Shown here: positions 13,358 to 63,183 of the stretch, piece by piece
Numbering within the stretch: position 1 is the stretch's first letter
Layout of the letters: each line of letters starts with the position of its first letter
Origin: an uncultured Gammaproteobacteria bacterium
Lineage (GTDB): Bacteria > Patescibacteriota > Patescibacteriia > Magasanikbacterales > GWA2-37-8
Direction of reading: 5' to 3'
NCBI GenBank assembly: GCA_964641245.1
Contig: CAZXML010000001.1
Coordinates: 45,065-109,064, forward strand
Length of the DNA stretch: 64,000 nucleotides
The notes under the pieces: model-generated
The model's input: only the letters and a program-made list of their open reading frames with translations
Told to the model about the DNA's origin: nothing
Databases searched by the model: none
Program-made: the position numbers and the translations under genes

Positions 13358-13741
13358 TTGAATATGCCGAGCGCCAGAAACACAATTCTTATCGTGGAGG
13401 ACGATTTGGACCTGCTGGAGGTTTTAAGAAAAAAATTTATCATGGAGAAATTTGAGGTATTACAAGCCCCGGACGGAAAAATTGGTTTGGAGGAAGCGTT
13501 GCGCAGTCATCCGGATTTAATTTTGTTGGATATTATAATGCCGATTATGGATGGGATGACTATGTTGGCCAAATTGCGCCAGGATTCCTGGGGGAAAAAT
13601 GTATCGGTAATATTGCTGACAAACCTAAGTGATGAAAGCAAAGTGGCCGAGGGGCTGAAACACGGAGTATACGACTATCTGGTTAAGGCCGATTGGAATA
13701 TTGGTGATGTGGTAAAAAAAGTTAAAGCCAGACTTAAATAA
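13358..13741 (+). CDS. Stand-alone response-regulator receiver protein
   Basis: ILIVEDDLDLLEVL...ILLDIIMPIMDGM...ILLTNL. 127 aa, receiver only. Confidence 0.8.
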   Translation: MNMPSARNTILIVEDDLDLLEVLRKKFIMEKFEVLQAPDGKIGLEEALRSHPDLILLDIIMPIMDGMTMLAKLRQDSWGKNVSVILLTNLSDESKVAEGLKHGVYDYLVKADWNIGDVVKKVKARLK

Positions 13742-33582: not shown

Positions 33583-33648
33583 TGTCATGCTGAACTTGTT
33601 TCAGCATCTTTCGATACACCGTAGATCCTGAAATGAATTCAGGATGAC
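33583..33648. repeat. Family-C element (TGTCATGCTGAACTTGTTTCAGCATC...GATCCTGAAATGAATTCAGGATGAC)
   Basis: Two short hairpins. Copies lie at 45665 and 47766 (inverted), at 52063, and in the 52666-52860 and 55184-55320 clusters. Confidence 0.8.
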
Positions 33649-33756
33649 GGGTAGTTTGGTTCGTCTATTTTAGTCCAGCACGTTTCTTTTGGCAAGAAAA
33701 AATCAAGGCCCGTATGTTAGCAGAAGGGGGATGAAATGTGGGTAGAATTAATTTGA

Positions 33757-37660: not shown

Positions 37661-39658
37661 TTGTCGTTTAGCTCTCTCATTTCGATTATGGAACCAAGCG
37701 AAAAAGAACCGGACATTATAGGCAACCCGGATGTCAACTATTTTGCCACCACCAATTTTCGCAATAAAAACCGGAAATTTGGCATAAAGCTGGACGATCG
37801 CCGCCGGCATTTATATGTTGTGGGCAAAACGGGTATGGGCAAAACCACCATGTTAGAAAACATGGTTCTTAATGATATCTACGCGGGGCACGGCGTGGGA
37901 GTGGTAGATCCGCACGGCGATTTTGCCGAAAAAATTATAGATTATATTCCGGCTAATCGCATTAACGACGTGGTTTATTTTAATCCGTCCGATATTGATT
38001 TTCCAATCGGTTTTAATATTTTAGAAAGCATAGATCCGCGCTACCGCCATTTGGTGGCATCCGGACTTATGGGCGTTTTCAAAAAAATCTGGCCGGATGT
38101 GTGGAGCGCGCGCATGGAATACATTTTAAACAACACTCTTTTGGCCTTGCTGGAATTTCCCAACACCACCCTGCTAGGCATCAACCGACTGCTGGCCGAC
38201 AACGCTTACCGCAAACGCGTCATTAAAAATTTAAAAGATCCTGTTATCCGTTCATTCTGGGAAACGGAATTTGCCGGTTATAACGACCGCTATAAACAGG
38301 AAGCGGTCGCTCCGGTACAAAATAAAATCGGTCAATTTTTGTCGGCTTCGGTTATCCGCAACATTGTGGCGCAGACAAAATCGCGCATCAACATCCGCGA
38401 AATCATGGACACCAAGAAAATTTTTATCATGAACTTATCCAAAGGCAGAATCGGCGAAGATAATTCCCGGTTGCTGGGTGGTATGCTTATCACCAAAATT
38501 CAATTGGCGGCCATGGAAAGAGTAGACACTCCGGAAAAAGACCGCAAAGATTTTTTTCTTTATGTAGATGAATTTCAAAATTTTGCCACGGAAAGTTTTT
38601 CCAACATTTTATCCGAAGCGCGCAAATACCGGTTAGACTTAACCATGGCGCACCAATATATGGAGCAGTTGGATGAAACCGTGCTGGCCGCGGTAATTGG
38701 TAACGTGGGTACGCTGGTAACATTCCGGGTGGGTTCTACGGATGCGGAAATTCTGGCCAAAGAATTCGCGCCTACTTTTATAGAAACCGATTTGGTTAAT
38801 TTAACAAAATTTCAAATTTATTTAAAATTAATGATAGACGGCGTTGCTTCACAGCCTTTTTCCGCCAACACTTTATCGCCGATAAATATTTCCACCCATA
38901 GCACAGAAAAAGTTATTAAAGTTTCCCGCGAACGCTACGCCACCAGCCGGGAAAATATAGAAGACAAAATTATGCGTTGGACCGGTATGGAAGCCGGCGG
39001 AACGGGGGATACCGATGTAGACGAGGACGATGAAAATTACGGCGAGGATGAAGAGGGTATGCCGGTTTTGTTAGATAAGATGGTTGCTCCACCAATGGTG
39101 CCGGTTGCTCCAAAAGCTCCGACTCCGTCTGCTGTAAAAAAACTCCCGATTCTGACTCCGAGTCAGAATCGAGGATCCTCGATTTTGCCCGAACGCAAAA
39201 TCGGGACAACCCCTCCGCCGGTCAAAAAATCAGAACCCGCTCCGGTTAAATCAGACATAAAAGACAGTCAGCCGATTTCATTGGTGGATACAAGTCAAAA
39301 GGGGATAAGTTTGTCGCAAGCAGTACAAACTAACAAACAACCTGTTAAAGTAGAGAAAAAACACGAACATAAACCGGTGCAGGTGAGTCAGACGGTTCCT
39401 AAACAAGCGACAAATGCCAACCCACCCCTACCCAGACGCCTCCCGACCGCGGTCGAGGATCCTCGATTCTCGAGAATCGGGACAAGCGGGGAATTGCCAA
39501 AACCGCCAGCGCCACCGGCGACACCGGCGTCGGTAATTCCGCCTAAACCTTTACCAATAAATCAAACAGAGAAAAAGATTTTCCCGGATAAAATTGTCCA
39601 CATAGACGATGACACGGATAATGGCCTGCCTGCCGGCAGGCAGGTTGACAAAAATTAA
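37661..39658 (+). CDS. TraD/VirD4/HerA-like P-loop NTPase with a Pro-rich low-complexity C-terminus that contains repeat-element insertions
   Basis: Walker A VVGKTGMGKTT, Walker B FFLYVDEFQNF, and an AHQYMEQL motif. The C-terminal 250 aa are P/K-rich with embedded CGAGGATCCTCG and CCTGCCTGCCGGCAGGCAGG hairpins. Confidence 0.5.
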   Translation: MSFSSLISIMEPSEKEPDIIGNPDVNYFATTNFRNKNRKFGIKLDDRRRHLYVVGKTGMGKTTMLENMVLNDIYAGHGVGVVDPHGDFAEKIIDYIPANRINDVVYFNPSDIDFPIGFNILESIDPRYRHLVASGLMGVFKKIWPDVWSARMEYILNNTLLALLEFPNTTLLGINRLLADNAYRKRVIKNLKDPVIRSFWETEFAGYNDRYKQEAVAPVQNKIGQFLSASVIRNIVAQTKSRINIREIMDTKKIFIMNLSKGRIGEDNSRLLGGMLITKIQLAAMERVDTPEKDRKDFFLYVDEFQNFATESFSNILSEARKYRLDLTMAHQYMEQLDETVLAAVIGNVGTLVTFRVGSTDAEILAKEFAPTFIETDLVNLTKFQIYLKLMIDGVASQPFSANTLSPINISTHSTEKVIKVSRERYATSRENIEDKIMRWTGMEAGGTGDTDVDEDDENYGEDEEGMPVLLDKMVAPPMVPVAPKAPTPSAVKKLPILTPSQNRGSSILPERKIGTTPPPVKKSEPAPVKSDIKDSQPISLVDTSQKGISLSQAVQTNKQPVKVEKKHEHKPVQVSQTVPKQATNANPPLPRRLPTAVEDPRFSRIGTSGELPKPPAPPATPASVIPPKPLPINQTEKKIFPDKIVHIDDDTDNGLPAGRQVDKN

Positions 39659-41959: not shown

Positions 41960-42290
41960 ACCTACCAGACCGCCCCTTTTTTGTTTTTTTATGGGGCTGG
42001 CTCTGATAAGTCTCATTCCGATTGTCCTGTGCTTTCGGATGCTCTCTTCCCGTAGGTGGGAGCATTGGGTTAACCAACCCCGATGGCGGTCGCTGACCAT
42101 GGTTCTTCGGCCTAGTGGCCTATCATGTTCTGCGCCATCGCGCTCGGCACGGTCTGTAGTACCCTCCTTCCTCGGTGTGGGTGTTGCTGGGGTTGATTTT
42201 TGAGCGGTGTGAGCAACCCAGGTCCCGCTGGGTTTCACGTTTTATATACTACTTTGCCTCTTGAGTTTTGTCAAGAGTAGTGATAAGATT
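41960..42290. ncRNA. ORF-free, GC-rich structured region; candidate non-coding RNA of unknown class
   Basis: About 300 nt with markedly higher GC than the flanks, containing many short complementary segments. Only short, low-complexity ORFs are present. Confidence 0.25.
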
Positions 42291-42297
42291 TATCAAT

Positions 42298-44229
42298 ATG
42301 ATTAACTCTCACGAATTACGTCAAAAATATCTGGAATTTTTCAAATCAAAAGGGCATGCCATTATTCCTTCGGCTTCTTTGATTCCGGAAAATGATCCCA
42401 CTGTGTTATTTACCACAGCCGGCATGCACCCGCTTGTTCCATATTTGCTTGGAGAAAAACATCCGGGTGGCAAACGGGTTACCAGCGCGCAAAAATGTGT
42501 GCGTACAGGCGACATAGACGAAGTGGGCGACAACCGTCATCTTACTTTTTTTGAAATGATGGGCAATTGGTCTTTTGGCGACTACTTCAAGAAGGAAGCG
42601 ATAGAATGGAGCTGGGAATTTTTAACATCTACAGTTTATTTAGGATTAGACCCGCGCCAATTGGCCGTGTCTGCTTTTGAAGGTGAAGAGGGGATTCCGC
42701 GCGACAACGAAGCCGCGGAAATTTGGCAATCTTTGGGAATGAGTGAAGAAAGAATTGCGTTTTTACCGAGAAAAAATAATTGGTGGGGTCCGGCGGGTCA
42801 AACCGGTCCGTGCGGTCCGGATACGGAAATGTTTTTTTGGCGCCCCAGTCATTCGACAGGGCAAGCGGCGGGTGAATTTCCTCCGGCCGGCAGTAATCCC
42901 AAAACAGACGAAGACAATTGGTTGGAAATTTGGAACGATGTTTTCATGCAGTACAATAAAAATACCGCCGGCGCCTACGAACCGTTAAAACAAACCAATG
43001 TAGATACGGGTATGGGTTTGGAACGGACGCTGGTGGTTCTAAATGGTTATGCGGATGTTTTTCAGATAGACACGCTTTGGCCGGTTATCCAAAAAATTCA
43101 AAACATTTCCGGGCGCGAGTATATAGAAAGCGCGGACGTCACCCGTTCCATGAGAATAATTGCCGACCATTTGCGTACGGCCACTATGATTATGGCCGAC
43201 GATACCAAAATCGCGCCCAGTAATGTGGATCAGGGTTATATTGTCCGTCGGTTAATCCGCCGCGCCGTGCGTCACGGCCGGCTGTTAGGCATGCACGCCA
43301 ATTTTTGCAGTATTATTTCTCAAGAAGTAATAAATATTTTGGCCGATGTTTATCCGGAGCTGGAAAAAAATAAAGAATTTGTGTTAACCGAAATGGCGCG
43401 GGAAGAAAGCGGTTTTAAAAATACCATTGAACAAGGTTTAAAAGAATTTGAAAAATTATTGCGCGGATTTCAAATGGCATTCGAAAAAATGCCGATTTTG
43501 CCTCGGCAAAATCGAGCATCCTCGATTTCAACGCCAGTTGAAATCGGGACAGGCCAAATGGTAAAACAAATTTCCGGCAAACAAGCATTCAAGTTATTTG
43601 AGACTTTTGGTTTTCCTTTGGAAATAACCCAGGAGCTGGCCAACGAAAATAATTTAATGGTAGATGTGAACGGTTTTGAGGAAGCGTTTAAAGCGCATCA
43701 GGATTTATCGCGCGTTGGCGCCGAACAAAAATTCAAAGGCGGGCTGGCCGATACCGGCGAGATGTCCACCAAATATCATACTGCCACCCATTTGCTCCAT
43801 GCCGTACTGCGCAAAGTGCTCGGGACGCATGTAGAACAGCGGGGCAGTAACATTACCGCCGAACGTTTGCGTTTTGATTTTTCTCATCCGGAAAAAATGT
43901 CGGAGGAACAAAAAAAACAAGTGGAAGATTTAATAAATTACGCCATCGGCCATGACTACCATGTATCTTTCGCCGAAATGTCTGTAGATGAAGCTAAAGC
44001 CAAGGACGCGATGGGTTTATTTGGCGATAAATACGGCGCCCAAGTTAAAGTTTATTCCATCGGCGATCCCAATTCCGCTCCGGACGCTCACGCCAATTCC
44101 CTAACATTCAGCCGCGAAATTTGCGGCGGTCCTCATGTAGAACACACCGGCACTCTCGGTAAATTTAAAATTATAAAAGAAGAAGCCGTGAGTTCGGGAA
44201 TTCGCCGTATCAAAGCTATTTTGGAATAA
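42298..44229 (+). CDS. alaS: Alanyl-tRNA synthetase, compact form lacking the C-Ala domain, with one in-frame element insertion
   Basis: Catalytic motifs FTTAGMHP, QKCVRTGDID and FFEMMGNWSFGDYFK. Editing domain HTATHLLH...CGGPHV. Insertion at ~43495-43560. Confidence 0.85.
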   Translation: MINSHELRQKYLEFFKSKGHAIIPSASLIPENDPTVLFTTAGMHPLVPYLLGEKHPGGKRVTSAQKCVRTGDIDEVGDNRHLTFFEMMGNWSFGDYFKKEAIEWSWEFLTSTVYLGLDPRQLAVSAFEGEEGIPRDNEAAEIWQSLGMSEERIAFLPRKNNWWGPAGQTGPCGPDTEMFFWRPSHSTGQAAGEFPPAGSNPKTDEDNWLEIWNDVFMQYNKNTAGAYEPLKQTNVDTGMGLERTLVVLNGYADVFQIDTLWPVIQKIQNISGREYIESADVTRSMRIIADHLRTATMIMADDTKIAPSNVDQGYIVRRLIRRAVRHGRLLGMHANFCSIISQEVINILADVYPELEKNKEFVLTEMAREESGFKNTIEQGLKEFEKLLRGFQMAFEKMPILPRQNRASSISTPVEIGTGQMVKQISGKQAFKLFETFGFPLEITQELANENNLMVDVNGFEEAFKAHQDLSRVGAEQKFKGGLADTGEMSTKYHTATHLLHAVLRKVLGTHVEQRGSNITAERLRFDFSHPEKMSEEQKKQVEDLINYAIGHDYHVSFAEMSVDEAKAKDAMGLFGDKYGAQVKVYSIGDPNSAPDAHANSLTFSREICGGPHVEHTGTLGKFKIIKEEAVSSGIRRIKAILE

Positions 44230-44232
44230 ATT

Positions 44233-44661
44233 ATGCTCAAAAAAATTATTTTATATCTTTGGTCAATGCGCCATCAGTTCGCGCGTTATTTTATTATTGG
44301 GTTAGGCGGGGTCGTTTTAGACATCGGCAGCCTTTACTTGTTAAAAGAATATTTACATTTGCGTCCGGTAATTGCGGTTATTGTCAACGGTATATTTTTG
44401 CTTAATTACGTTTTTTTTCTAAACAAGTATTGGACTTTTAAATCGCAAGGCGTTACGCACAAGCAGGTAATCCGGTTTTTTATTTTATCGGGAATAAACT
44501 ACGGTATTTCTATCGGCTGGATGTATATTTTCAATCATATATTCGGCTTTAATTACCTTTTGGTCAGACTTTCCAACATCGCCCTTTCGGTAGCCTGGAA
44601 TTTCCTTCTATATAAGTACTGGGTGTACAAACAGGAAGAGCCGGTAATTTTCGCCAGTTAG
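44233..44661 (+). CDS. GtrA-family membrane protein
   Basis: 142 aa with four TM helices. GtrA-like RYFIIGLGGVVLDIGSLYLL...KYWTFK. Confidence 0.65.
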   Translation: MLKKIILYLWSMRHQFARYFIIGLGGVVLDIGSLYLLKEYLHLRPVIAVIVNGIFLLNYVFFLNKYWTFKSQGVTHKQVIRFFILSGINYGISIGWMYIFNHIFGFNYLLVRLSNIALSVAWNFLLYKYWVYKQEEPVIFAS

Positions 44662-44734
44662 AGCCAAGACACATACCCCTTGACTTAATTACTGTTTTGT
44701 ATTATCATATACCTCGTTACTAATATCCACGTAA

Positions 44735-44953
44735 ATGGCTAATAACAAAGACATCATCGAAGTAAAAGGTACTATAGAGGAGCTACTCCCGGCTACGACT
44801 TTTAAAGTAAAGCTGGAAAGCGGCCAGATGATCATTGCCCATTTATCCGGAAAAATCAGAATGAATAAAATCAGAATGAGCATTGGCGACAGCGTAAAAA
44901 TAGAAATGACGCCATACGACTTGACAAAAGGAAGAATAACGTATAGATTCTAG
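44735..44953 (+). CDS. infA: Translation initiation factor IF-1
   Basis: 72 aa S1-like. [54 protein letters not shown]. Confidence 0.9.
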
Positions 44954-45105
44954 TAGTCGGCAAGGGAGTGGACAACTTACTATATATACATATCAATCAT
45001 TGCGGTGTAGCTGGATCGTAGTTATACAACGTCTAAATGTCCGTATAACTTAACCATCTGGTGCTGATATCGCGGCAGTGATTGGTATTTTTTAAAACTA
45101 AAATT

Positions 45106-45219
45106 ATGAAAGTACGCGCATCTGTAAGAAAAATTTGTATCAAATGTAAAATCGTCCGCCGCAAGGGACGCGTTTGTGTTATCTGCGTTACACCAAAACA
45201 CAAGCAACGACAAGGTTAA
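45106..45219 (+). CDS. rpmJ: 50S ribosomal protein L36
   Basis: Hand translation [37 protein letters not shown]. It is below the ORF-track length cutoff. Confidence 0.85.
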
Positions 45220-45265
45220 TTTCTTAATTTCTAAATCATTTTTCTAATCATTAATTTCTCCGTGT

Positions 45266-45649
45266 ATGCGTGTATCCGGTATAAACATTCCTAAGGAAAA
45301 AAGAATCGTCATTGCTTTAAGTTATATTTACGGCATCGGCCCTACTTTTGCTAAAAAGATTTTGGCTCAAGCCAAAATCAGCGAAGACACCAGAACAAAA
45401 GATCTTACTCCGGAACAGGAAGACAAATTACGCATGATTATTGAAAAAGAATATAAGACAGAAGGTGATTTGCGCCGTGAAGTTATGGCCAACATCAAAC
45501 GTCTTAAAGATATCAAAGCCTACAGAGGCATCCGCCACATGAAACACTTGCCGGTCAGAGGTCAGCGCACCAAAACCAACTCACGCACTGTCCGCGGTAA
45601 TGTCCGCAAAACTATGGGTAGCGGCCGGGTCAAGGAAGGTTTAAAGTAA
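45266..45649 (+). CDS. rpsM: 30S ribosomal protein S13
   Basis: [25 protein letters not shown]. Confidence 0.9.
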
Positions 45650-45664
45650 AAAGATAATCGTTAA

Positions 45665-45734
45665 TGTCATGCTGAACTTGTTTCAGCATCCAGTCGGATA
45701 AATTAATAGATCCTGAATCAAGTTCAGGATGACA
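45665..45734. repeat. Family-C element
   Basis: GTCATGCTGAACTTGTTTCAGCATC...GATCCTGAATCAAGTTCAGGATGACA, between rpsM and rpsK. Confidence 0.8.
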
Positions 45735-45746
45735 AATAATATAAAT

Positions 45747-46205
45747 ATGTCAGATGTTCAATCAGTACAACCAGCCGAAGTAAAAGTGGCCACAGAAGCC
45801 GTCAAAACTACTTCCGAAAAGCCGGTCGCAAAGGGAAAGAAAAAGAAAGTAGTCAGACAAGTTGTTCATGGCAATGCTTTTATTCAGGCTTCCTACAACA
45901 ACACCATCATCAGCATCACCGATCCTAACGGAGATGTTTTGGGCTGGTCATCGGCCGGTAAAGTAGGGTTTAAGGGTCCAAAAAAGGCCACTCCTTACGC
46001 CGCCAGCATGGTGGTAAAAGACATTGTGGATAAGTTGGTTGCTTACGGACTTAAAGATATCCATGTTTTTGTAAAAGGAATCGGCGGAGGCCGTGAAGGC
46101 GCCATCCGCGGTTTGCACTTAAACGGTTTGAATGTTTTATCCATCAGCGACGTCACCCCAATCCCGCACAACGGTTGCCGCGCTCCAAGAAAACGCAGAA
46201 TTTAA
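45747..46205 (+). CDS. rpsK: 30S ribosomal protein S11
   Basis: HGNAFIQASYNNTIISITDPNGDVLGWSSAG...PYAA. The start is probably the internal ATG. Confidence 0.85.
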   Translation: MSDVQSVQPAEVKVATEAVKTTSEKPVAKGKKKKVVRQVVHGNAFIQASYNNTIISITDPNGDVLGWSSAGKVGFKGPKKATPYAASMVVKDIVDKLVAYGLKDIHVFVKGIGGGREGAIRGLHLNGLNVLSISDVTPIPHNGCRAPRKRRI

Positions 46206-46257
46206 ACGCAAATTATCATTTATCATTTATCATTTATCAATTATCAAGTATTGAAAT

Positions 46258-46866
46258 ATGGCAAGAGATTTAAGACCAAAACATAAATTGTGCAGAAAAT
46301 ACGGAGAGAAGCTTTGTGATTCTCCTAAATGTCCGCTTACCAAACGCCCATATCCGGCCGGCGTTCATGGTCCAAGCAAAAAACACCACAAGCAATCTGT
46401 TTATGGTAAACAATTGTTCGAAAAACAAAAAGCCAAACAATTGTATGGTCTTTTGGAAAAACAATTTTCAAACTATGTAGCCGAAGCTTCAAAAAGCACC
46501 GGCGACACCGGAAAGTTTCTGGTAAATTATTTGGAATCAAGACTGGACAATGTTATTTACCGCACCGGTTTGGCTTCTTCCCGTCGCGCCGGCCGACAAT
46601 TGGTTTGTCATGGCCACGTATTGGTAAACGGCAAGAAAGTAGATATCCCTTCTTACAGAGTTCGTATTGGTGAAGAAGTTGGTTTATCCGAAAAAAGCAA
46701 AACCAGTCCGCTTTTTGCCAAAGTTACCGAAACTTTAAGCAAAGTAGACGCGCCAGGTTGGTTGGCTATCAATCCAAAAAATGCGTCCGCCAAAGTGCTT
46801 AACGCTCCTACGGTAGATACTCCGGGTTACGACGCTAAATCAATCATTGAGTTCTACTCACGTTAA
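46258..46866 (+). CDS. rpsD: 30S ribosomal protein S4
   Basis: N-terminal Cys cluster and an S4 domain (LDNVIYRTGLASSRRAGRQLV.HGHVLVNGKKV). Confidence 0.9.
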   Translation: MARDLRPKHKLCRKYGEKLCDSPKCPLTKRPYPAGVHGPSKKHHKQSVYGKQLFEKQKAKQLYGLLEKQFSNYVAEASKSTGDTGKFLVNYLESRLDNVIYRTGLASSRRAGRQLVCHGHVLVNGKKVDIPSYRVRIGEEVGLSEKSKTSPLFAKVTETLSKVDAPGWLAINPKNASAKVLNAPTVDTPGYDAKSIIEFYSR

Positions 46867-46983: not shown

Positions 46984-47757
46984 ATGGAAAATCTATTGCT
47001 GCCGTCAAAAATAGAGTTCGTGCCAGGAGACGCCCCAAACAAAGGGCAATTAATTGTGTCACCGTGCTTTTTTGGCTACGGCACAACTTTGGGCAACACT
47101 TTAAGACGCGTTTTGCTTTCTTCTCTTCCCGGAGCCGCGGTTGAAGCCTTAAAAATAAAAGGCGTTTCCCACGAATTCAGTTCCGCCGAAGGTTTAAAAG
47201 ACGATGTGGTAGATATAATTTTAAGCTTAAAACAATTAGCTGTCAGAGTTTTTATAGATGAACCGGTTACCTTACACATCAGCAAGAAAGGCCCGGGCGA
47301 AGTCACCGCCGCCGACATCGAACCAAATGCCAGTGTGCAAATTATGAATCCGGATTTGGTTTTGGCTACCCTTACCTCCAACAAAACTTTTGAAATGGAT
47401 TTGGTTGTTGGTCGCGGACGCGGTTTTAAACCGGTAGAAGAAAAAGACAAAAAGCACTATGATTTGGGTACTATCGTTATCGATTCCATTTACACCCCAA
47501 TCAAAGATGTCGGCTATAATGTTGAATACACCCGCGTGGGCGATATCACCAACTACGAAAAGTTAATTTTAAATATCGAAACTAACGGCACTATCACTCC
47601 AAGTGAAGCCGTTAAACAAACCACCCAGATTATAATGGATCACTTTGCTATTATCGCCGCCGCCGCTGCCGAAATAATCGAAGAAATGCCGGTACCGGTT
47701 ACAGCCGAAGAAGAACCAAAAGCCAAGAAAGCTAAAAAAGCTAAAAAGAAAGCGTAA
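46984..47757 (+). CDS. rpoA: RNA polymerase alpha subunit consisting of the N-terminal domain only, with a Lys-rich tail
   Basis: Alpha-NTD motifs GYGTTLGNTLRRVLLSSLPGAAV and ...RGRGF. It ends after ~235 aa with EEPKAKKAKKAKKKA. No alpha-CTD follows. Confidence 0.8.
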   Translation: MENLLLPSKIEFVPGDAPNKGQLIVSPCFFGYGTTLGNTLRRVLLSSLPGAAVEALKIKGVSHEFSSAEGLKDDVVDIILSLKQLAVRVFIDEPVTLHISKKGPGEVTAADIEPNASVQIMNPDLVLATLTSNKTFEMDLVVGRGRGFKPVEEKDKKHYDLGTIVIDSIYTPIKDVGYNVEYTRVGDITNYEKLILNIETNGTITPSEAVKQTTQIIMDHFAIIAAAAAEIIEEMPVPVTAEEEPKAKKAKKAKKKA

Positions 47758-47765
47758 TTAACACC

Positions 47766-47833
47766 TGTCATCCTGAACTAGTTTCAGGATCTACGGAATC
47801 CCCGAAAGATGCTGAAACAAGTTCAGCATGACA
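47766..47833. repeat. Family-C element (inverted)
   Basis: TGTCATCCTGAACTAGTTTCAGGATC...GATGCTGAAACAAGTTCAGCATGACA. Confidence 0.8.
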
Positions 47834-47849
47834 CAATACTAAATATCAT

Positions 47850-48200
47850 ATGCGTCACCAAAAGAACAAGGTTACCTTAGATAGAAAGACAGCCGCGCGC
47901 CGATCTCTTTTGGCAAACCTGGCTGAGAGTTTGATTATATACGAAAAAATAAAAACCACTAAAGCCAAGGCCAAAGCTTTGCGCCCTTACGTGGAACGCC
48001 TAATCACCAAAGCCAAACTGCAAACTTTAGCCGCCCGCAGAGATATCATGAAGTCATTATACACTCAAAATGCGGTTAAAAAGTTAATGGAGAACTTGGC
48101 CCCAAGATTTAAAGAAAGACCAGGTGGCTTTACCCGTATCATCATGATTCGAAACAGAAAAGGCGACGGCGCTGAAGAGGTTCTTATCGAGTTAGTATAA
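47850..48200 (+). CDS. rplQ: 50S ribosomal protein L17
   Basis: MRHQKNKVTLDRKTAARRSLLANLAESLI. Confidence 0.9.
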   Translation: MRHQKNKVTLDRKTAARRSLLANLAESLIIYEKIKTTKAKAKALRPYVERLITKAKLQTLAARRDIMKSLYTQNAVKKLMENLAPRFKERPGGFTRIIMIRNRKGDGAEEVLIELV

Positions 48201-51913: not shown

Positions 51914-52663
51914 ATGGAATTGATAAGTGTCATCATCCCCGTCTACAACCACGCCCACACCCTAAAAAGATCCCTAGATTCTATTTTTAACCAAACCTAC
52001 CGCCCTTTAGAGGTAATCGTAGTCAACGACGGCAGCACCGACAATTTCTCCGAAGTCATGTCAAGCTGTCATCCTGAACTTGTTTCAGGATCTATCACTG
52101 TAAAAACAATCTCCCAACCCAACTCCGGCGCCCCCACCGCCCGCAACAACGGCTTCGCCCTCTCCAAAGGCGACTACGTCATCTTCTGGGACGCCGACAC
52201 CCTCGCCAACCCCCAAATGCTCCAAAAAATGTTCTCTTATTTACAAAAACACCCCGACGCTTCTTATTCCTACTCCCAATTCAAATTCGGCTGGAAAACC
52301 ATAAAAAGCCACCCCTTCGACGCTCAAAAACTAAAGCAATTAAATTACATCGACGTCACCTCCCTCATCCGCCGCCAATCTCTCAATTGTCATCCTGAAC
52401 GCAGTGAAGGATCCCTCTCTGTCTGCCCCTTCGACCCATCCCTAAAACGTTTCCAAGACTGGGACCTCTGGCTCACTCTCTTATCCCGTGGAAAAACCGG
52501 CGTCTTCATCCCCGAAGTCCTCTACGAAAAAGTAGTCGGCTCCCGCGAAGGCATCAGCACCTGGCTCCCCAGTTTTATGTATCTTCTACCCTGGAAAACC
52601 AAAGAAGTAAAAAAATACGAATCCGCCCGTTCAATCATTATAAAAAAACACAATCTATTGTAG
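51914..52663 (+). CDS. Glycosyltransferase family 2, with two in-frame partial palindromic-element insertions
   Basis: ISVIIPVYNHAHTLKRSL...LEVIVVNDGSTD, and a D.D region. The insertions encode SSCHPELVSGSITV (52063-52100) and NCHPERSEGSLSVCP (~52378-52425). Confidence 0.7.
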   Translation: MELISVIIPVYNHAHTLKRSLDSIFNQTYRPLEVIVVNDGSTDNFSEVMSSCHPELVSGSITVKTISQPNSGAPTARNNGFALSKGDYVIFWDADTLANPQMLQKMFSYLQKHPDASYSYSQFKFGWKTIKSHPFDAQKLKQLNYIDVTSLIRRQSLNCHPERSEGSLSVCPFDPSLKRFQDWDLWLTLLSRGKTGVFIPEVLYEKVVGSREGISTWLPSFMYLLPWKTKEVKKYESARSIIIKKHNLL

Positions 52664-55013: not shown

Positions 55014-55183
55014 AACAAAAAAGCCCCTTGCGGGGAGGTAGCCTTATAGATTTGTGATGCCTAGATTATAGCCAACCGATGGATGGGAACATCTAGAACA
55101 ATCTACAAAGGACTTATACCTGACTCTAGAATACAGCTTTTTAACCTAAATGTCAATAGTTATCCACAGGTCATTTTATGCCT

Positions 55184-55340
55184 GTCATTCCCGCTTGTCA
55201 CTTGTCATCTCGCGTCTTTAACTGTCATCCTGAGCGAAGCGTAGGATCTATACCTATAAAAGAAAATCGTAAATTCGTATCTTGTCATCCTGAACTTGTT
55301 TCAGGATCTATTAGTTGTAAAACACCCCCAAAAAGCGTAA
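55184..55340. repeat. Cluster of family-D (TGTCATTCCCGC), short TGTCATC and family-C hairpin elements
   Basis: It matches the 52666-52860 cluster. Confidence 0.75.
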
Positions 55341-55352
55341 AATACAACCAAT

Positions 55353-55505
55353 ATGCCCACCAAAACAATCCTCAAACGCCTACAAAAAACCTGCGCGTGC
55401 TGCGGAAAAGCAATTCATGTTATTGTCTATTCTCCCGCAGCGAGCGGGATCCTCGACTCGTGGAGTCGGGACAAAAAAGATTATCGCGGCGGTTTTTTTA
55501 TTTAA
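55353..55505 (+). pseudogene. Truncated duplicate of the 52886-53200 Zn-ribbon gene
   Basis: MPTKTILKRLQKTCACCGKAIHVIVYSPAASGILDSWSRDKKDYRGG then a stop. It is ~90% identical to the first 50 codons of the upstream copy. Confidence 0.6.
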
Positions 55506-55582
55506 GTTTTAGGTGGCTCTCTCCCTATTTAGGGGAGAGATACAGAGTGGGGTATTTTTACCTTTATGTGTTTAGTTATTTT

Positions 55583-56248
55583 ATGACCAAAATTAAAGAT
55601 ATTCCTAAAATAGACAGACCCAGGGAAAAATTAATAAAGTACGGTCCGGAGAAATTATCTAACTCAGAATTGTTGGCAATTTTATTAGGTACGGGAGTAA
55701 AAGGTGTGAATGTAGTGGAATTATCAAATAAAATTCTAAAGAAATTTAGCAGCGTAGGTTTGGCCACCGCAAATTTTGATGAATTAAAAAATACTTTTGG
55801 CCTGGGTCCCGCCAAAGCCTGCGAAATCTCTGCTTGTTTTGAATTAGGACGTAGATTGCTAAAAGACAAGAAGTTCGCTTTGCTTTTGTCCCCTCAAGAG
55901 GTGTGGCAGGAGTTAAGGGATCTCCGGGATTTAAAGAAGGAGCATTTTGTTATTTTTTATCTTGATACCAGAAATCAGGAAATTAAACGGGACATCATTT
56001 CGTTCGGTACTCTTAATGCAAATTTAGTCCACCCACGCGAAGTATTTGAACCGGCCATTATCCACTGCGCCGCCCAAATTATCGTCGCCCACAACCACCC
56101 TTCCGGCAATCCTGAACCATCCGAAGAGGATATAGAAATCACCAAGCGTTTGGTGGAAGCGGGGAAGATATTGGGAATAGAGGTGTTAGATCATGTAATA
56201 GTAACTAAATCAGGCTTTAGTAGTCTTAAAGAGTTGGGCTTAATGTAA
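55583..56248 (+). CDS. radC: RadC-like JAB/MPN domain protein (UPF0758)
   Basis: HhH N-terminus and the JAMM motif HNHPSG...E. 221 aa from the internal ATG. The upstream ORF extension is a translation of the repeat cluster. Confidence 0.8.
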   Translation: MTKIKDIPKIDRPREKLIKYGPEKLSNSELLAILLGTGVKGVNVVELSNKILKKFSSVGLATANFDELKNTFGLGPAKACEISACFELGRRLLKDKKFALLLSPQEVWQELRDLRDLKKEHFVIFYLDTRNQEIKRDIISFGTLNANLVHPREVFEPAIIHCAAQIIVAHNHPSGNPEPSEEDIEITKRLVEAGKILGIEVLDHVIVTKSGFSSLKELGLM

Positions 56249-56385: not shown

Positions 56386-56739
56386 ATGAACACCAAAACC
56401 ACCCTCTCCATCTCCGAAGCCAGAAAAAAAATATTTGACATCGCCGAAGCAGTGCAACGCCCGGGGAATTATTATACCATTACAGAAAATGGAAAGCCAA
56501 AAGCGGTGCTGATGAGTGCGGAGGAATTTGAGTCGTGGGTAGAAACAATGGAAATTTTGAGTGACCCAAAAGCAATGAAACGGATTGAACAGGCGGAAAA
56601 GGAGCTAAGGCGCGGTGATTATGTAAGTTGGACTGATTTTAAAAAAGGATGGGGGCATACGCAAAAGACCGGTGTTATGGCATTGGCAGATAAAGGCAAA
56701 AAAAAGTATCGTGTTGGCGGTGGAAAAAAGAAGCGTTAA
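56386..56739 (+). CDS. Phd/YefM-family antitoxin
   Basis: LSISEARKKIFDIAEAV....YTITENGKPKAVLMSAEEFESW.ET.EIL. Confidence 0.7.
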   Translation: MNTKTTLSISEARKKIFDIAEAVQRPGNYYTITENGKPKAVLMSAEEFESWVETMEILSDPKAMKRIEQAEKELRRGDYVSWTDFKKGWGHTQKTGVMALADKGKKKYRVGGGKKKR

Positions 56740-58921: not shown

Positions 58922-60499
58922 ATGCCCACACTCAACTGGATCGGAAAAGATAAAATTACTAATCATGACAAGGATGTGCCGTTCCGGCTGTTGAAGAAAA
59001 ATAACAAACTTTCGCTTGGGCAAAGTGATAATTTGGTTGTGGAAGGTGATAATTTGGAGGCATTAAAGGCATTAATGCCTTTTTATTATAATAAAGTAAA
59101 ATGTATCTATATTGACCCACCATATAACACCGGCAATGAGGGGTGGGTTTATAACGACAGGGTAAATTCAACAAGAATTCAGGAGTGGCTGGGTAAGGCC
59201 GTCGGACCGGAAGGGGAGGATCTTACGCGCCACGACAAGTGGTTGTGCATGATGTATCCACGGCTAAAGCTGTTAAAAGATTTATTACGGGATGACGGAG
59301 TTATTTTTATTTCCATTGATGACAATGAACATTGTAGCTTGCGAATGATTGTGGATGAAATTTTTGGTATAGAAAATTTTGTTGAATCTTTTATCTGGAA
59401 ATCTAGACTTGGAAAAGGTGCTACTTCTCAGACTACAGCCAAATTGCATGAATATGTTGTGGCTTATGCAAAAAATATCCAACAACTGGAATTTAAAACC
59501 GACAAAAGAATTAGTGTTGGTGAGGCCAAAGAAAGACTGCGACAGTGGGGGCAAGGTGATCGAAGAGAGGATCGTCCCACGATGTATTATTCTGTGTATT
59601 CAAAAAAATTTGGTAAGGTATACCCGATAAGACCAGATGGAAGTGGTGGACGATGGCGCATAAGTAAAAATAAAATGGAGGAGTTAATTTCTGGCGGGTC
59701 TGTTATTTTTGAAAAACAGAAGGATGGTCGCATCGAAGCTTATAGAATTATACCGTCTGGTTCAGAAACAAATACCGCCTATTCATCTATTCTTAATTCT
59801 GACATTGTAAAAACGACCGCACACGGTAGTACGGAATTGAAGGAGGTTTTTGGTAAGCAAATTTTTGCTTACCCTAAACCCGCCAGCCTAATCAAAGAAT
59901 TAGTTTCGCTTTGTGCTGAAAAAGACAAAGAGGCGATAATTCTCGACTCATTTGCTGGTTCCGGCACAACTGGCCATGCGGTTTTGGAATTAAATAAAGA
60001 GGACGGTGGGAATCGTAAGTTTATTTTGGTAGAAATGGAAGAAAAAATTGCCAAAGAAATTACTTCGGAAAGAATGAGGCGGGTGATCGGCGGGTATTCC
60101 TATAAAACTAATAGCGATAAGTCAGTGAAAGTTGCTGGTTTAGGTGGCGGATTTGAATATGTTGAACTGGGTTCCACGTTATTTTCTAACGCCGGAGCGA
60201 TTAGTGACAGCGTAAAATATTTTGACTTGGCCAGCTATGTATTTTTTACTGAAACGCTTACCAATTTAGAAAAGAGGAAAGTTAAAGAGCCATATTTGGG
60301 TAATTTTGCTGATTCTGATTACTATCTACTGTTCACCGGCAAGGACAAAAATATTTTGGATCGTAAGTTTTTAAAACAAATCCAAAATAAAACTAGCCGC
60401 AACGTAATTTATGCAGATAAATGTTTATTAGATGAAGATATGTTGGAAAAGTACCAAATTATTTTCAAACAAATTCCGTATCAGATTAAGGTATATTAA
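58922..60499 (+). CDS. mod: Type III R-M Mod-like beta-class N6-adenine / N4-cytosine DNA methyltransferase
   Basis: Motif IV IYIDPPYN precedes motif I LDSFAGSGTTGHAV. Confidence 0.8.
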   Translation: MPTLNWIGKDKITNHDKDVPFRLLKKNNKLSLGQSDNLVVEGDNLEALKALMPFYYNKVKCIYIDPPYNTGNEGWVYNDRVNSTRIQEWLGKAVGPEGEDLTRHDKWLCMMYPRLKLLKDLLRDDGVIFISIDDNEHCSLRMIVDEIFGIENFVESFIWKSRLGKGATSQTTAKLHEYVVAYAKNIQQLEFKTDKRISVGEAKERLRQWGQGDRREDRPTMYYSVYSKKFGKVYPIRPDGSGGRWRISKNKMEELISGGSVIFEKQKDGRIEAYRIIPSGSETNTAYSSILNSDIVKTTAHGSTELKEVFGKQIFAYPKPASLIKELVSLCAEKDKEAIILDSFAGSGTTGHAVLELNKEDGGNRKFILVEMEEKIAKEITSERMRRVIGGYSYKTNSDKSVKVAGLGGGFEYVELGSTLFSNAGAISDSVKYFDLASYVFFTETLTNLEKRKVKEPYLGNFADSDYYLLFTGKDKNILDRKFLKQIQNKTSRNVIYADKCLLDEDMLEKYQIIFKQIPYQIKVY

Positions 60500-60843
60500 T
60501 CAAGAATTTTAGGGTTAAATGTGGCGCTGTGTTCCAAGACATTGGCAATGGCGCGGATAGTGTCTTGAGCTGTGAGGGAGGTTTCGCTCAAAGAAACGAT
60601 ATAGGTGCCGCGCGACGGCGATGAAAAAACACCAGTATTTACCAGTGCGCTATGCACATCAGCGTAAGATACAAACGGGCTCATTTCCGAATTAATCCAC
60701 ATAACAGGTTTGGCAGTCCAGAATTCGGCGTCTTGGCCCAGGCAGGTTGATGTCACCAGCATCACTAACCCACTACCAGTCGATATGTTTTGTAAGTTGG
60801 AATTATAAGCTAAACCCGATGTCAGATAAATATCTTCTTTCAT
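60496..60843 (-). CDS. Hypothetical protein encoded antisense between mod and res
   Basis: 115-aa ORF in a locally GC-richer segment, convergent with mod and divergent from res. Confidence 0.35.
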   Translation of the reverse strand: MKEDIYLTSGLAYNSNLQNISTGSGLVMLVTSTCLGQDAEFWTAKPVMWINSEMSPFVSYADVHSALVNTGVFSSPSRGTYIVSLSETSLTAQDTIRAIANVLEHSATFNPKILD

Positions 60844-60897
60844 AAAAATAAATTAAGAATAAGGCGTTATTGTAACATTCATTTTAAATACAAGCAA

Positions 60898-63183
60898 ATG
60901 CAGCTTAAAAAATACCAACAAAAAGTATTAGATGCTCTGGAAAAGTATGTTCTGGAGATTAAAAAATACGACACCGCCAAGGCGGCGGGTGTGGCTTTTA
61001 TGGTCCAAGCGGATAAGCAGTATAATTGGGTGCCGGAGTTGGGGAGTAGCCCATTCGTTTGTGTAAAGGTACCTACCGGTGGAGGTAAAACAATTATCGC
61101 TTCTTCGGCTTTAGGTGTTTTGTTTAAACAGTTTGTGCCGGAGAGAAATGATCACGGATTAGTAATGTGGTTTGTGCCTTCGGACGCAATTAAAAAACAA
61201 ACCTTAGATAATTTACGTAATCGTAAGCATCCTTACCGTTCGATTTTGGATGATCGTTTTGATACCGCAGTTAAAGTTTTTGATTTATCAGAAGCCAAGA
61301 CAATGAAGAAGGATGATTTACGGGATAATGCCTGCATAGTTGTTACGACTCTAAGCGCCTTTAGGCGCACTGACAGAGAGTGGCTTAAGGTTTTTCAAGA
61401 CAACGGAAGTCTGATGACTCATTTTGAGAATGAAGAAATTGACAAGTTGGATTTTTTACAGAAAAACAAACAAGGTGGTGTGGTTTTTTCTTTGGCCAAT
61501 GTTATAAAATTATATAATCCTTTGGTGATTGTTGATGAAGGGCATAATGTCCAAACGAATTTGTCTTTTGACATGTTGAAGGAATTGAATCCGGCGTTTA
61601 TTTTGGAGTTTACTGCCACGCCAAAAGGGCAAAGCAATGTTTTGATAAATATTTCAGCTCAGGAATTGAAAGAAGAGAAAATGATTAAAATGCCAATTTA
61701 TTTGGCGAATCAAACACCTTGGCAAGATACTGTTTATGCCGGTATTGAGAAAATTAAGGAATTGGAAAAGATCACACAAAAATTAAAAGGTGAATACATA
61801 CGACCAATTATGCTTATTCAGGCGGAGCAAGAATTGGTTAATGAAAAGAAAATTTATGTAGATAAAATTGTTAAATTTTTATTGGAGGAAGCAAAAATTC
61901 CCGCTGAACAAATCGCCATTCAAACCAGTAAAACTAAGCAGTTGCCTACAGCCGAAGAATTAGCCGATAAAAAATGTCCGATAAGATATATTATTACAGT
62001 TAATGCTTTGCGTGAGGGTTGGGACTGTCCTTTCGCCTATGTTTTGGTGTCGGTATCCAATATGGGCGCCAGACTTTCGGTGGAGCAAACCATCGGTCGT
62101 CTAATGCGTTTACCGGGAGCCAAAGAAAAAGCGGACCCGGCTTTAAATTCGGCCTATGTTTTTGCTTGTACTAGGAATTTTAGTGAAACATCAGAAATGG
62201 TAATTAAGGCGTTGCAAGAAAACGGATATGAGGATGTCGTTGGTGTTGCAAACGGTGTTAATATTGTGCGGAATGTTTTTGCACGGAAAATTAAAGATAA
62301 AAATATTATTTTGCCATTATTGAATATTAAAGAAGGTGAAAAATATCGTAAGATGGATTATGTTGGAGATTTAATTGGCGATGACTCAATATTGGTTTCC
62401 GCTTCTTTTTCTGGTGGTGTTAAGCTGGAAAGTGATAGTAAAATGATAAAAATTGATATTGGTCATGAGGGTGAACTGGTGCGCGATTCTGTTGGAAAAT
62501 TGGGGCTTATTTACCATCATCAGGATTTATCGCGCGCAGAATTAGAAAGTTGGTTTATTACCAAAATTCAACGCGGCTTTATTTCCATAAAAGAAATGAG
62601 TGGATATGTCTCTAAAGCCATTGGAGTTTTATTAAGTAAGTATAGTTTAAGCGCTCTTAGTACAAATCGTTATCAGGTCAAAGAAGAAATTGATCGACAG
62701 ATTGATTTAGCGGTTGATAAACATACAAAGAAAAAATTTATTGAATTAAAAAAGTTGTTAAAATCTGAAGGCGAAGGCCTTGTGTTGGGAGCTGAAATTA
62801 GTTTACTACAATACACTAAAGATAACTTTATTAAGCACCTATACGAACGAGCTGGAGCAATGAATCGGGAAGAATTAGATTTAGCGTTTAAAATTGATAA
62901 TTCGGATAATGTTTTATGGTGGTTCCGCAATCCGGACGTTGGCGGGTTTTATATTCAAGGTTGGCTGAAGCATAAATTTTATCCGGATTTTGTTGTTAAA
63001 ACTAAAAAAGGCAATTATTTCGTTTTGGAATATAAAGGTGAACATTTAGAAGGATCGGAAGATTCGGAATATAAAATGGAGATAGGAAAAATATGGCAGG
63101 AGTTAGCAGATAAAAATTATCACTTTGAATGGGTGGACAAGAAAAATATGGTGGAGGTAGTTGATAAAATTAGCAAATTATGA
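60898..63183 (+). CDS. res: Type III restriction enzyme Res subunit (SF2 helicase plus a PD-(D/E)xK nuclease)
   Basis: Motif I KVPTGGGKT, motif II VIVDEGHN, motif III FTATP, ALREGWDCP, motif VI QTIGRLMR, and a C-terminal PD...EYK. Confidence 0.8.
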   Translation: MQLKKYQQKVLDALEKYVLEIKKYDTAKAAGVAFMVQADKQYNWVPELGSSPFVCVKVPTGGGKTIIASSALGVLFKQFVPERNDHGLVMWFVPSDAIKKQTLDNLRNRKHPYRSILDDRFDTAVKVFDLSEAKTMKKDDLRDNACIVVTTLSAFRRTDREWLKVFQDNGSLMTHFENEEIDKLDFLQKNKQGGVVFSLANVIKLYNPLVIVDEGHNVQTNLSFDMLKELNPAFILEFTATPKGQSNVLINISAQELKEEKMIKMPIYLANQTPWQDTVYAGIEKIKELEKITQKLKGEYIRPIMLIQAEQELVNEKKIYVDKIVKFLLEEAKIPAEQIAIQTSKTKQLPTAEELADKKCPIRYIITVNALREGWDCPFAYVLVSVSNMGARLSVEQTIGRLMRLPGAKEKADPALNSAYVFACTRNFSETSEMVIKALQENGYEDVVGVANGVNIVRNVFARKIKDKNIILPLLNIKEGEKYRKMDYVGDLIGDDSILVSASFSGGVKLESDSKMIKIDIGHEGELVRDSVGKLGLIYHHQDLSRAELESWFITKIQRGFISIKEMSGYVSKAIGVLLSKYSLSALSTNRYQVKEEIDRQIDLAVDKHTKKKFIELKKLLKSEGEGLVLGAEISLLQYTKDNFIKHLYERAGAMNREELDLAFKIDNSDNVLWWFRNPDVGGFYIQGWLKHKFYPDFVVKTKKGNYFVLEYKGEHLEGSEDSEYKMEIGKIWQELADKNYHFEWVDKKNMVEVVDKISKL

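Follow-up and report, generated by a model that had tools for sequence, protein, structure and literature searches.

A CTD-less RNA polymerase alpha subunit with a conserved basic tail in a Magasanikbacteria-type genome

Does the rpoA gene of this locus really encode an RNA polymerase (RNAP) alpha subunit that stops after its N-terminal domain, and if so, what stands in the place of the missing part? In the canonical alpha (329 aa in E. coli, 314 aa in B. subtilis), an N-terminal domain (NTD) is followed by a flexible linker and a C-terminal domain (alpha-CTD). The NTD scaffolds beta and beta-prime; by itself it allows alpha to dimerise, the core to assemble and basal sigma-dependent transcription to proceed. 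The alpha-CTD is required for UP-element recognition and class I-type activation; UP elements and a large fraction of the known activators contact it, and to our knowledge it is usually treated as universal in bacteria. An earlier note had claimed that the alpha encoded in the window (the whole stretch of DNA that was analysed, 64,000 nucleotides) ends after the assembly domain and that this fits a CPR-type organism.

The rpoA gene, its product and its operon

The features of the locus are as follows.

45266..46866, + strand: rpsM, rpsK and rpsD, upstream genes of the alpha operon (S11 and S4 by Pfam; S13 by the annotation of the JGI contig)
46984..47757, + strand: rpoA, CTD-less RNA polymerase alpha (Pfam, NCBIfam, solved chains)
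46984..47661, + strand: alpha N-terminal (assembly/dimerisation) domain, aa 1-226 (PF01193, PF01000)
47662..47718, + strand: spacer, aa 227-245 (AAAAAEIIEEMPVPVTAEEEP), hydrophobic then acidic (116-homologue comparison, AF2)
47719..47754, + strand: basic terminus, aa 246-257 (KAKKAKKAKKKA), 8 K in 12 residues (homologues, codons, AF2)
47766..47833, + strand: 68-nt hairpin between rpoA and rplQ (MFE -35.6 kcal/mol, z -9.1)
47850..48200, + strand: rplQ (L17; PF01196, E 1.4e-34)

The rpoA ORF (46984..47757, +) starts with ATG and encodes a protein of 257 aa, whose C-terminal end is ...EEEPKAKKAKKAKKKA* and whose last residues read ...VTAEEEPKAKKAKKAKKKA. The start MENLLLPSK is common to the homologues; the NCBI gene call for this gene begins at an internal TTG. 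Two Pfam domains match above the gathering score, namely PF01193 (dimerisation domain, Rpb3/Rpb11-type; aa 27-221, E 2e-22) and PF01000 (RpoA insert; aa 57-171, E 7e-30), and PF03118, the helix-hairpin-helix alpha-CTD, gives no match at E<=1. The rpoA model TIGR02027 scores 256.0 bits against a cutoff of 227.8, with a match that spans only model positions 2-233 of 298. All 8 PRK05182-type NCBIfam equivalogs score the protein under their cutoffs (NF003519: 267.1 against 277), since nothing in it aligns with the CTD portion of these models. For annotation this means that a CTD-less RpoA drops under most NCBIfam equivalog cutoffs, and at least one close homologue (P0009) is deposited as 'Uncharacterized protein'. 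The best solved chain is 6wvj_A (314 aa, E 3e-62), which we take to be from B. subtilis RNAP; only its residues 8-247 align, and its CTD remains without counterpart. Both halves of the original claim, that alpha ends after the assembly domain and that the alpha-CTD is missing, are thus borne out.

The NTD itself is about 50% identical to solved bacterial alpha NTDs, contains 53 columns that are invariant in a 59-sequence RpoA alignment and is folded in an AF2 model based on that alignment, with a final helix at aa 206-234. These invariant columns and the level of identity suggest that an RpoA dimer would combine with beta and beta-prime into an active core. After the NTD, about 30 residues, disordered in the model, occupy the place of the linker and of the roughly 70-85-aa helix-hairpin-helix CTD. 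An archaeal subunit D or eukaryotic Rpb3 identity was considered and rejected: the archaeal subunit D equivalog NF001988 gives 27.5 bits against a cutoff of 153 and NF011548 gives 24.9 against 194. By its profile scores, the protein is clearly bacterial.

An apparent loss of the CTD could be produced by a sequencing or assembly artefact, or by a pseudogene, and this explanation is refuted, with practically no probability left to it. The start of rplQ (47850) lies 92 nt past the rpoA stop, directly after the gene as the earlier note had it, and this gap cannot contain a CTD because the domain needs 70 aa or more. Translation of 47640-47900 reveals CTD-like sequence in none of the 3 frames. The identical 257-aa RpoA is found, with the same gene order, on a 26.5-kb JGI metagenome contig, and also in the Logan assembly of an SRA run; its presence in independent assemblies excludes an assembly-specific frameshift. 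The same architecture is moreover shared by 80/80 species-level genomes and by the 120/120 nearest database proteins. The gene is therefore an intact, expressed-looking rpoA in its usual operon, and its product is a complete alpha NTD without CTD.

The gene order in the window is rpsM-rpsK-rpsD-rpoA-rplQ-rplM-rpsI. Alpha-operon order is also present in the 78 of 80 related loci where L17 was located, with rplQ 1-133 nt 3' of the rpoA stop. An rpmJ-like ORF (45082-45219) precedes rpsM, and rplM-rpsI is joined to the end of the operon. Upstream of the alpha operon lie alaS and a GtrA-family membrane protein gene (42268-45266), not the secY-adk-map-infA genes with which the spc operon usually ends.

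The hairpin between rpoA and rplQ has no T-run after it and is thus not a canonical terminator. Its arm motif, TGTCATSCTGAACTTGTTTCAGSAT, belongs to a dispersed palindromic repeat and occurs 9 times in the window, with 0 occurrences expected (sites 33583, 45665/45710, 47766/47809, 52067, 52669, 52816 and 55283). Long hairpins (-30 to -36 kcal/mol) are formed at 33583-33650, at 45665-45734 between rpsM and rpsK, and at 47766-47833 between rpoA and rplQ; each remaining site has a single short hairpin. None of the 80 related loci contains the core motif, and Rfam returned only sub-threshold chance matches on the operon region, this hairpin included. A conserved regulatory RNA was ruled out, given the motif's presence in 0/80 related loci and its dispersal here, and we regard the hairpin as a genome-specific REP/MITE-like insertion that stands apart from the rpoA story. 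A short repeat unit also lies in-frame within a family-2 glycosyltransferase ORF (51914-52663), where it reads ...SSCHPELVSGSI..., a related unit further on reads ...NCHPERSEGSLS..., and similar units occur in the N-terminal extension of a RadC-like ORF (55178-56248), upstream of its Pfam domains. Either such repeats are tolerated in coding sequence, or these ORF starts or frames are not as they seem.

Distribution of the CTD-less form and search for a separate CTD

The best 120 homologues in a database of 5.8 billion proteins (64-100% identity, 253-297 aa) carry the NTD Pfam domains only. Among species-representative genomes with a relative of this protein (52-88% identity), rpoA is CTD-less in 80 out of 80. 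Most of these genomes bear the label Candidatus Magasanikbacteria, Magasanikiibacteriota or Patescibacteria, and the closest named relatives are Candidatus Magasanikbacteria, which agrees with the earlier assignment to a CPR-type organism.

An exhaustive search of 1.84 billion 50%-identity representatives extended this comparison to more distant proteins. Among the best 150 representatives, which were inspected (39-60% identity to the query), the CTD is present in 78 and absent in 72. About 40 truncated, frameshift-looking or duplicated entries were set aside; the clean CTD-less clusters number 36, of which 21 end in a basic, 4 in an AT-hook-like and 6 in an acidic terminus, 4 are tail-less and 1 has another terminus. 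The CTD classification agrees with Pfam in 10/10 proteins: PF03118 lies above threshold in 4/4 predicted to bear the CTD and gives no match at E<=1 in 6/6 predicted to lack it.

The few named CTD-less clusters are called 'Patescibacteria group' or 'Parcubacteria group'. Most representatives are nameless, and CTD-bearing and CTD-less forms both occur under 'Patescibacteria group'; P0141 and P0145, among the nearest CTD-bearing representatives, are named 'Patescibacteria group bacterium', so that the PF03118 model does detect a CTD in Patescibacteria RpoA. Since a bona fide PF03118 is retained in the RpoA of some Patescibacteria, loss of the CTD is not a general property of the CPR but is lineage-specific. 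A neighbour-joining tree of the NTDs, which carries no support values, places the query inside a purely CTD-less clade of 18 clusters and scatters the other CTD-less groups among CTD-bearing ones, which hints at more than one loss. Taken together, the CTD-less alpha is almost certainly a genuine lineage trait. The CTD-less state is fixed throughout the Magasanikbacteria-type clade as sampled here and also occurs in further Patescibacteria/Parcubacteria lineages. A fixed CTD-less alpha in a large, environmentally abundant clade means that the recognition and activation layer provided by the CTD is dispensable outside endosymbionts.

Several side observations were made on these proteins and their records. 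Among the relatives at 52-58% identity, loci L068, L070, L073 and L075-L079 encode a shorter alpha of 228-236 aa that ends immediately past the last NTD helix (rpoA at about 3001-3690 in these loci), and the alphas of L069, L071 and L074 have purely acidic tails. Magasanikbacteria-type rpoA genes (52-86% identity) are found in many MAG records titled 'uncultured Gammaproteobacteria bacterium' (for example L003, L005 and L007-L013), and other such records are titled 'Candidatus Udaeobacter sp.' or 'uncultured Francisellaceae bacterium' (L004 and L077); the record-level taxonomy of these MAGs is probably wrong. Four database proteins (P0121, P0125, P0129 and P0135) contain two NTD matches. One of them, P0121 (569 aa), is duplicated exactly in tandem, which is probably an artefact of assembly. 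In P0125 (526 aa, NTD-NTD-CTD) and P0135 (664 aa, NTD-CTD-like-NTD-CTD) the halves have diverged, and by this divergence the two could be genuine covalently fused alpha dimers.

A CTD might also be supplied in trans, by an alpha-CTD-like (HhH) protein encoded elsewhere in the genome. The sequence examined here is 64 kb of that genome, and split genes are known from reduced genomes, which both speak for this explanation. Two CTD HMMs were used in the search, one based on three CTD sequences (from E. coli, B. subtilis and Thermus), the other built from the 78 CTD-bearing proteins among the 150 representatives. With the three-sequence model no stand-alone CTD was found in the 64-kb window, and the 78-sequence model reached a best E of about 1 over its six frames. 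Likewise, six-frame scanning of 486,624 bases (487 kb) around rpoA of the 80 related loci gave nothing at E<=1. A phmmer match (E 0.025) at 10982-11134, antisense to a histidine-kinase gene, was judged to be chance. Beyond these scans, a CTD without its tether would forfeit the recruitment logic that defines its function. With 64 kb of this genome and the rpoA surroundings of 80 relatives scanned, we hold provision in trans to be very unlikely.

The C-terminal tail and its possible role

The earlier note had treated the Lys-rich tail as incidental. This view has to be revised, because nothing else in the C-terminal region is conserved as strongly as the tail. The stretch that follows the NTD was compared in 116 homologues; it measures 34-76 aa (median 48), and its sequence is variable. 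The spacer, with a median net charge of -6.5 in these homologues, varies in length and sequence and shows no consensus in the 59-sequence alignment. By contrast with this freely varying spacer, 7-8 of the last 12 residues are K or R in 112 of the 116 homologues, and K251 and K255 are nearly invariant in the 59-sequence alignment. With 8 K/R in its last 12 residues, RpoA ranks first among 57 putative genes of the window, followed by an antitoxin-like protein and ribosomal proteins S9 and S11; a basic C-terminus is thus not a general habit of the proteome, as far as these 57 genes represent it.

Codon usage leads in the same direction. At tail positions where Lys is retained (68 loci), AAA and AAG were counted 302 and 187 times, and the two codons interchange freely between species while the residue is kept. 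AAG makes up 38% of the Lys codons in the tail as opposed to 19% in 13 sampled window genes. This pattern indicates that conservation acts at the protein level, and selection for basic charge in the tail is likely. Acidic spacer and basic terminus together behave, across the aligned sequences, as a conserved module. AF2 gives pLDDT values below 50 from residue 237 onwards (33-35 over residues 237-257), so the tail is predicted to be disordered, with no small domain hidden in it.

Four 50%-identity clusters of CTD-less alphas (P0127, P0133, P0170 and P0217) end in KKRGRPKK, the canonical AT-hook core; two of the four bear a Patescibacteria or Parcubacteria name. The 13-residue Pfam model AT_hook (PF02178) matches exactly the C-terminal end of P0170 and P0133, with scores of 12.5 and 13.1 bits that lie under the 17.4 cutoff. 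The window's own tail, KAKKAKKAKKKA, has no GRP core and no Pfam AT-hook match at E<=10.

What would an RNAP with such an alpha do? It would be expected to assemble and to carry out sigma-directed basal transcription, with no reading of UP elements through a CTD and no recruitment by class I-type activators or CTD-binding factors. From the domain content we infer, as a matter of logic, the absence of alpha-CTD-dependent activation. Promoters and regulators in these organisms are accordingly predicted to act through sigma-directed contacts, through alpha-NTD contacts or through repression only. In B. subtilis, a CTD-truncated alpha still enters an RNAP that binds DNA and elongates, and specific regulons are reduced (PMC4495994; PMC8321222).

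The window offers a small sample of the regulatory genes that accompany this polymerase. Its other features of interest are listed below.

81-467 and 13358-13741: receiver-only response regulators of 128 and 127 aa, flanking the histidine kinase
1434-10445, + strand: 3003-aa ORF, no Pfam above threshold, a sub-threshold Reelin subrepeat match alone
10466-13342: multi-PAS histidine kinase
37661-39658: TrwB/VirD4-like type IV coupling protein
56386-56739: Phd/YefM antitoxin with a strongly basic C-terminus
58922-63183: N6/N4 DNA methylase, then ResIII/DEAD helicase

Neither of the two receiver proteins has a DNA-binding output domain; if they are partners of the kinase, two-component signalling here ends in no classical transcription activator. 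No member of the classical activator families was found among the roughly 50 window genes scanned, and this lack, in a 64-kb sample, fits a small regulatory repertoire. As to the other genes, the 3003-aa ORF may be a giant surface protein of the kind typical of CPR genomes, and the methylase and helicase form a probable type III restriction-modification system.

For the tail itself, our proposal is that a minimal module has taken the place of the CTD, consisting of an acidic, flexible spacer and a Lys-rich terminus that would be held by selection. In RNAP structures, the C-terminus of the NTD, from which the CTD linker departs, projects toward upstream promoter DNA. The two basic tails of each RNAP would then most likely touch upstream, A/T-rich DNA in a non-specific manner, by electrostatic or minor-groove contacts. 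Such an interaction would be a crude, activator-independent version of the contact between CTD and UP element, and so a partial stand-in for the CTD. The conserved basic character, the position of the tether and the AT-hook variants of sister lineages together suggest a role of the tail in upstream DNA contact; judged from these sequence features, a contact of this kind is possible but tentative. Against it, the window's own tail has no RGRP AT-hook core, CTD-less relatives at 52-58% identity are tail-less (228-236 aa) or purely acidic, and RNA, ribosomes or acidic proteins are equally plausible partners of a Lys-rich tail. Because those distant relatives do without it, the basic tail is accessory and not required for a working CTD-less RNAP.

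Two other accounts of the tail have to be set beside this proposal. In one, the Lys-rich stretch is a neutral, low-complexity remnant of linker erosion, and the RNAP works without any upstream contact by alpha. The tail-less and acidic-tailed CTD-less relatives (L068-L071 and L073-L079), the high variability of the spacer and the predicted disorder of the terminus are all in its favour. Against it stand the 7-8 K/R kept in 112/116 homologues next to a freely varying spacer, the synonymous exchange of Lys codons with Lys retained, the most basic C-terminus among 57 window genes, and the recurrence of basic or AT-hook termini in separate CTD-less groups, and we find this account rather doubtful. 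In the other, the basic tail serves a role different from promoter DNA binding: contact with nascent RNA or the ribosome (transcription-translation coupling), general nucleoid tethering, or a regulatory switch in which the tail folds onto the acidic spacer or binds some other acidic partner. An acidic spacer followed by a basic terminus is indeed also typical of auto-inhibitory or RNA-binding tails, and RNA-binding ribosomal proteins are among the other strongly basic C-termini of the window. Yet the RGRP core, a DNA minor-groove motif, appears at the same position in four separate clusters, and the tail is attached where, in the known structures, the CTD linker normally exits toward upstream DNA, so that a role of this other type appears unlikely.

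On balance we lean towards the combined explanation, in which a CTD-less alpha is a lineage trait and the tail acts as a minimal upstream DNA contact. A wider reading, which we consider improbable as a whole, is that in several Patescibacteria lineages the folded CTD was replaced, possibly more than once, by a disordered DNA-binding peptide on a flexible acidic tether; this peptide would be Lys-rich in Magasanikbacteria, and some Parcubacteria-type lineages would have a true AT-hook. If it were true, RNAP would keep a generic, activator-independent grip on A/T-rich upstream DNA and lose all CTD-mediated regulation, and we would be dealing with a naturally occurring minimal UP-element reader inside a core RNAP subunit. 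Basic and AT-hook tails bear on the question of how little is needed for upstream DNA contact.

Comparison with known systems

Loss of the CTD alone is already known, as a remark. One sentence of PMC8321222 states that it is 'also present in Parcubacteria'. The work cited there for Parcubacteria (Nelson and Stegen 2015, PMC4508563) contains none of 'RNA polymerase', 'polymerase' or 'rpoA' in its main text, so the statement appears to be an observation of the PMC8321222 authors themselves. The RpoA described here falls under this Parcubacteria/Patescibacteria mention. Our literature search on Patescibacteria/CPR and the alpha-CTD found no paper examining CTD loss, and a 2025 preprint still calls the alpha-CTD ubiquitous in bacteria. 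What appears to be new is the fixation of the loss, alongside an intact NTD, in the entire Magasanikbacteria-type clade, together with the acidic spacer and the basic or AT-hook terminus.

With canonical RpoA, the window protein shares an orthologous NTD (about 50% identity, TIGR02027 above cutoff), and its gene shares the position between rpsD and rplQ. It differs in having no PF03118 and, instead, a 31-aa disordered spacer and Lys-rich terminus. Archaeal RpoD and eukaryotic Rpb3/AC40 are homologues of the alpha NTD that are naturally without a CTD. Like them, the window protein has the PF01193 and PF01000 folds and no HhH CTD; unlike archaeal RpoD, it is bacterial (NF001988, 27.5 bits against a cutoff of 153).

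Closer in circumstance are the extremely reduced insect endosymbionts Hodgkinia and Tremblaya, in which a CTD-less alpha has been described (PMC8321222). In these as in the window, reduced-genome bacteria keep alpha as an NTD only. However, the Hodgkinia and Tremblaya cases are described as erosion that includes partial loss of the NTD, whereas the NTD is fully conserved here, and more than 100 species-level lineages of the window type possess a conserved basic C-terminal module that sets them apart from the endosymbionts. The chloroplast rpoA of Euglena species also has no CTD, according to Sheveleva et al. 2002 (cited in PMC8321222). There too, a bacterial-type RNAP runs on an NTD-only alpha, but in an organelle with nucleus-encoded factors.

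For the tail, the nearest likenesses lie outside alpha. Lys/Ala-rich tails are known from mycobacterial HupB and from histone H1-like proteins. Wbl proteins bound to sigma-A carry a C-terminal AT-hook and offer an earlier example of RNAP with a tethered basic peptide at promoters (PMC6954389). As in Wbl and HupB, the tail of the window protein is a short, basic, disordered C-terminal peptide on a promoter-positioned protein, and the sister CTD-less alphas with an RGRP core resemble the Wbl AT-hook itself. Unlike the Wbl peptide, that of the window has no RGRP core and a DNA-binding role that is putative, and it is part of a core RNAP subunit, present in two copies per enzyme.
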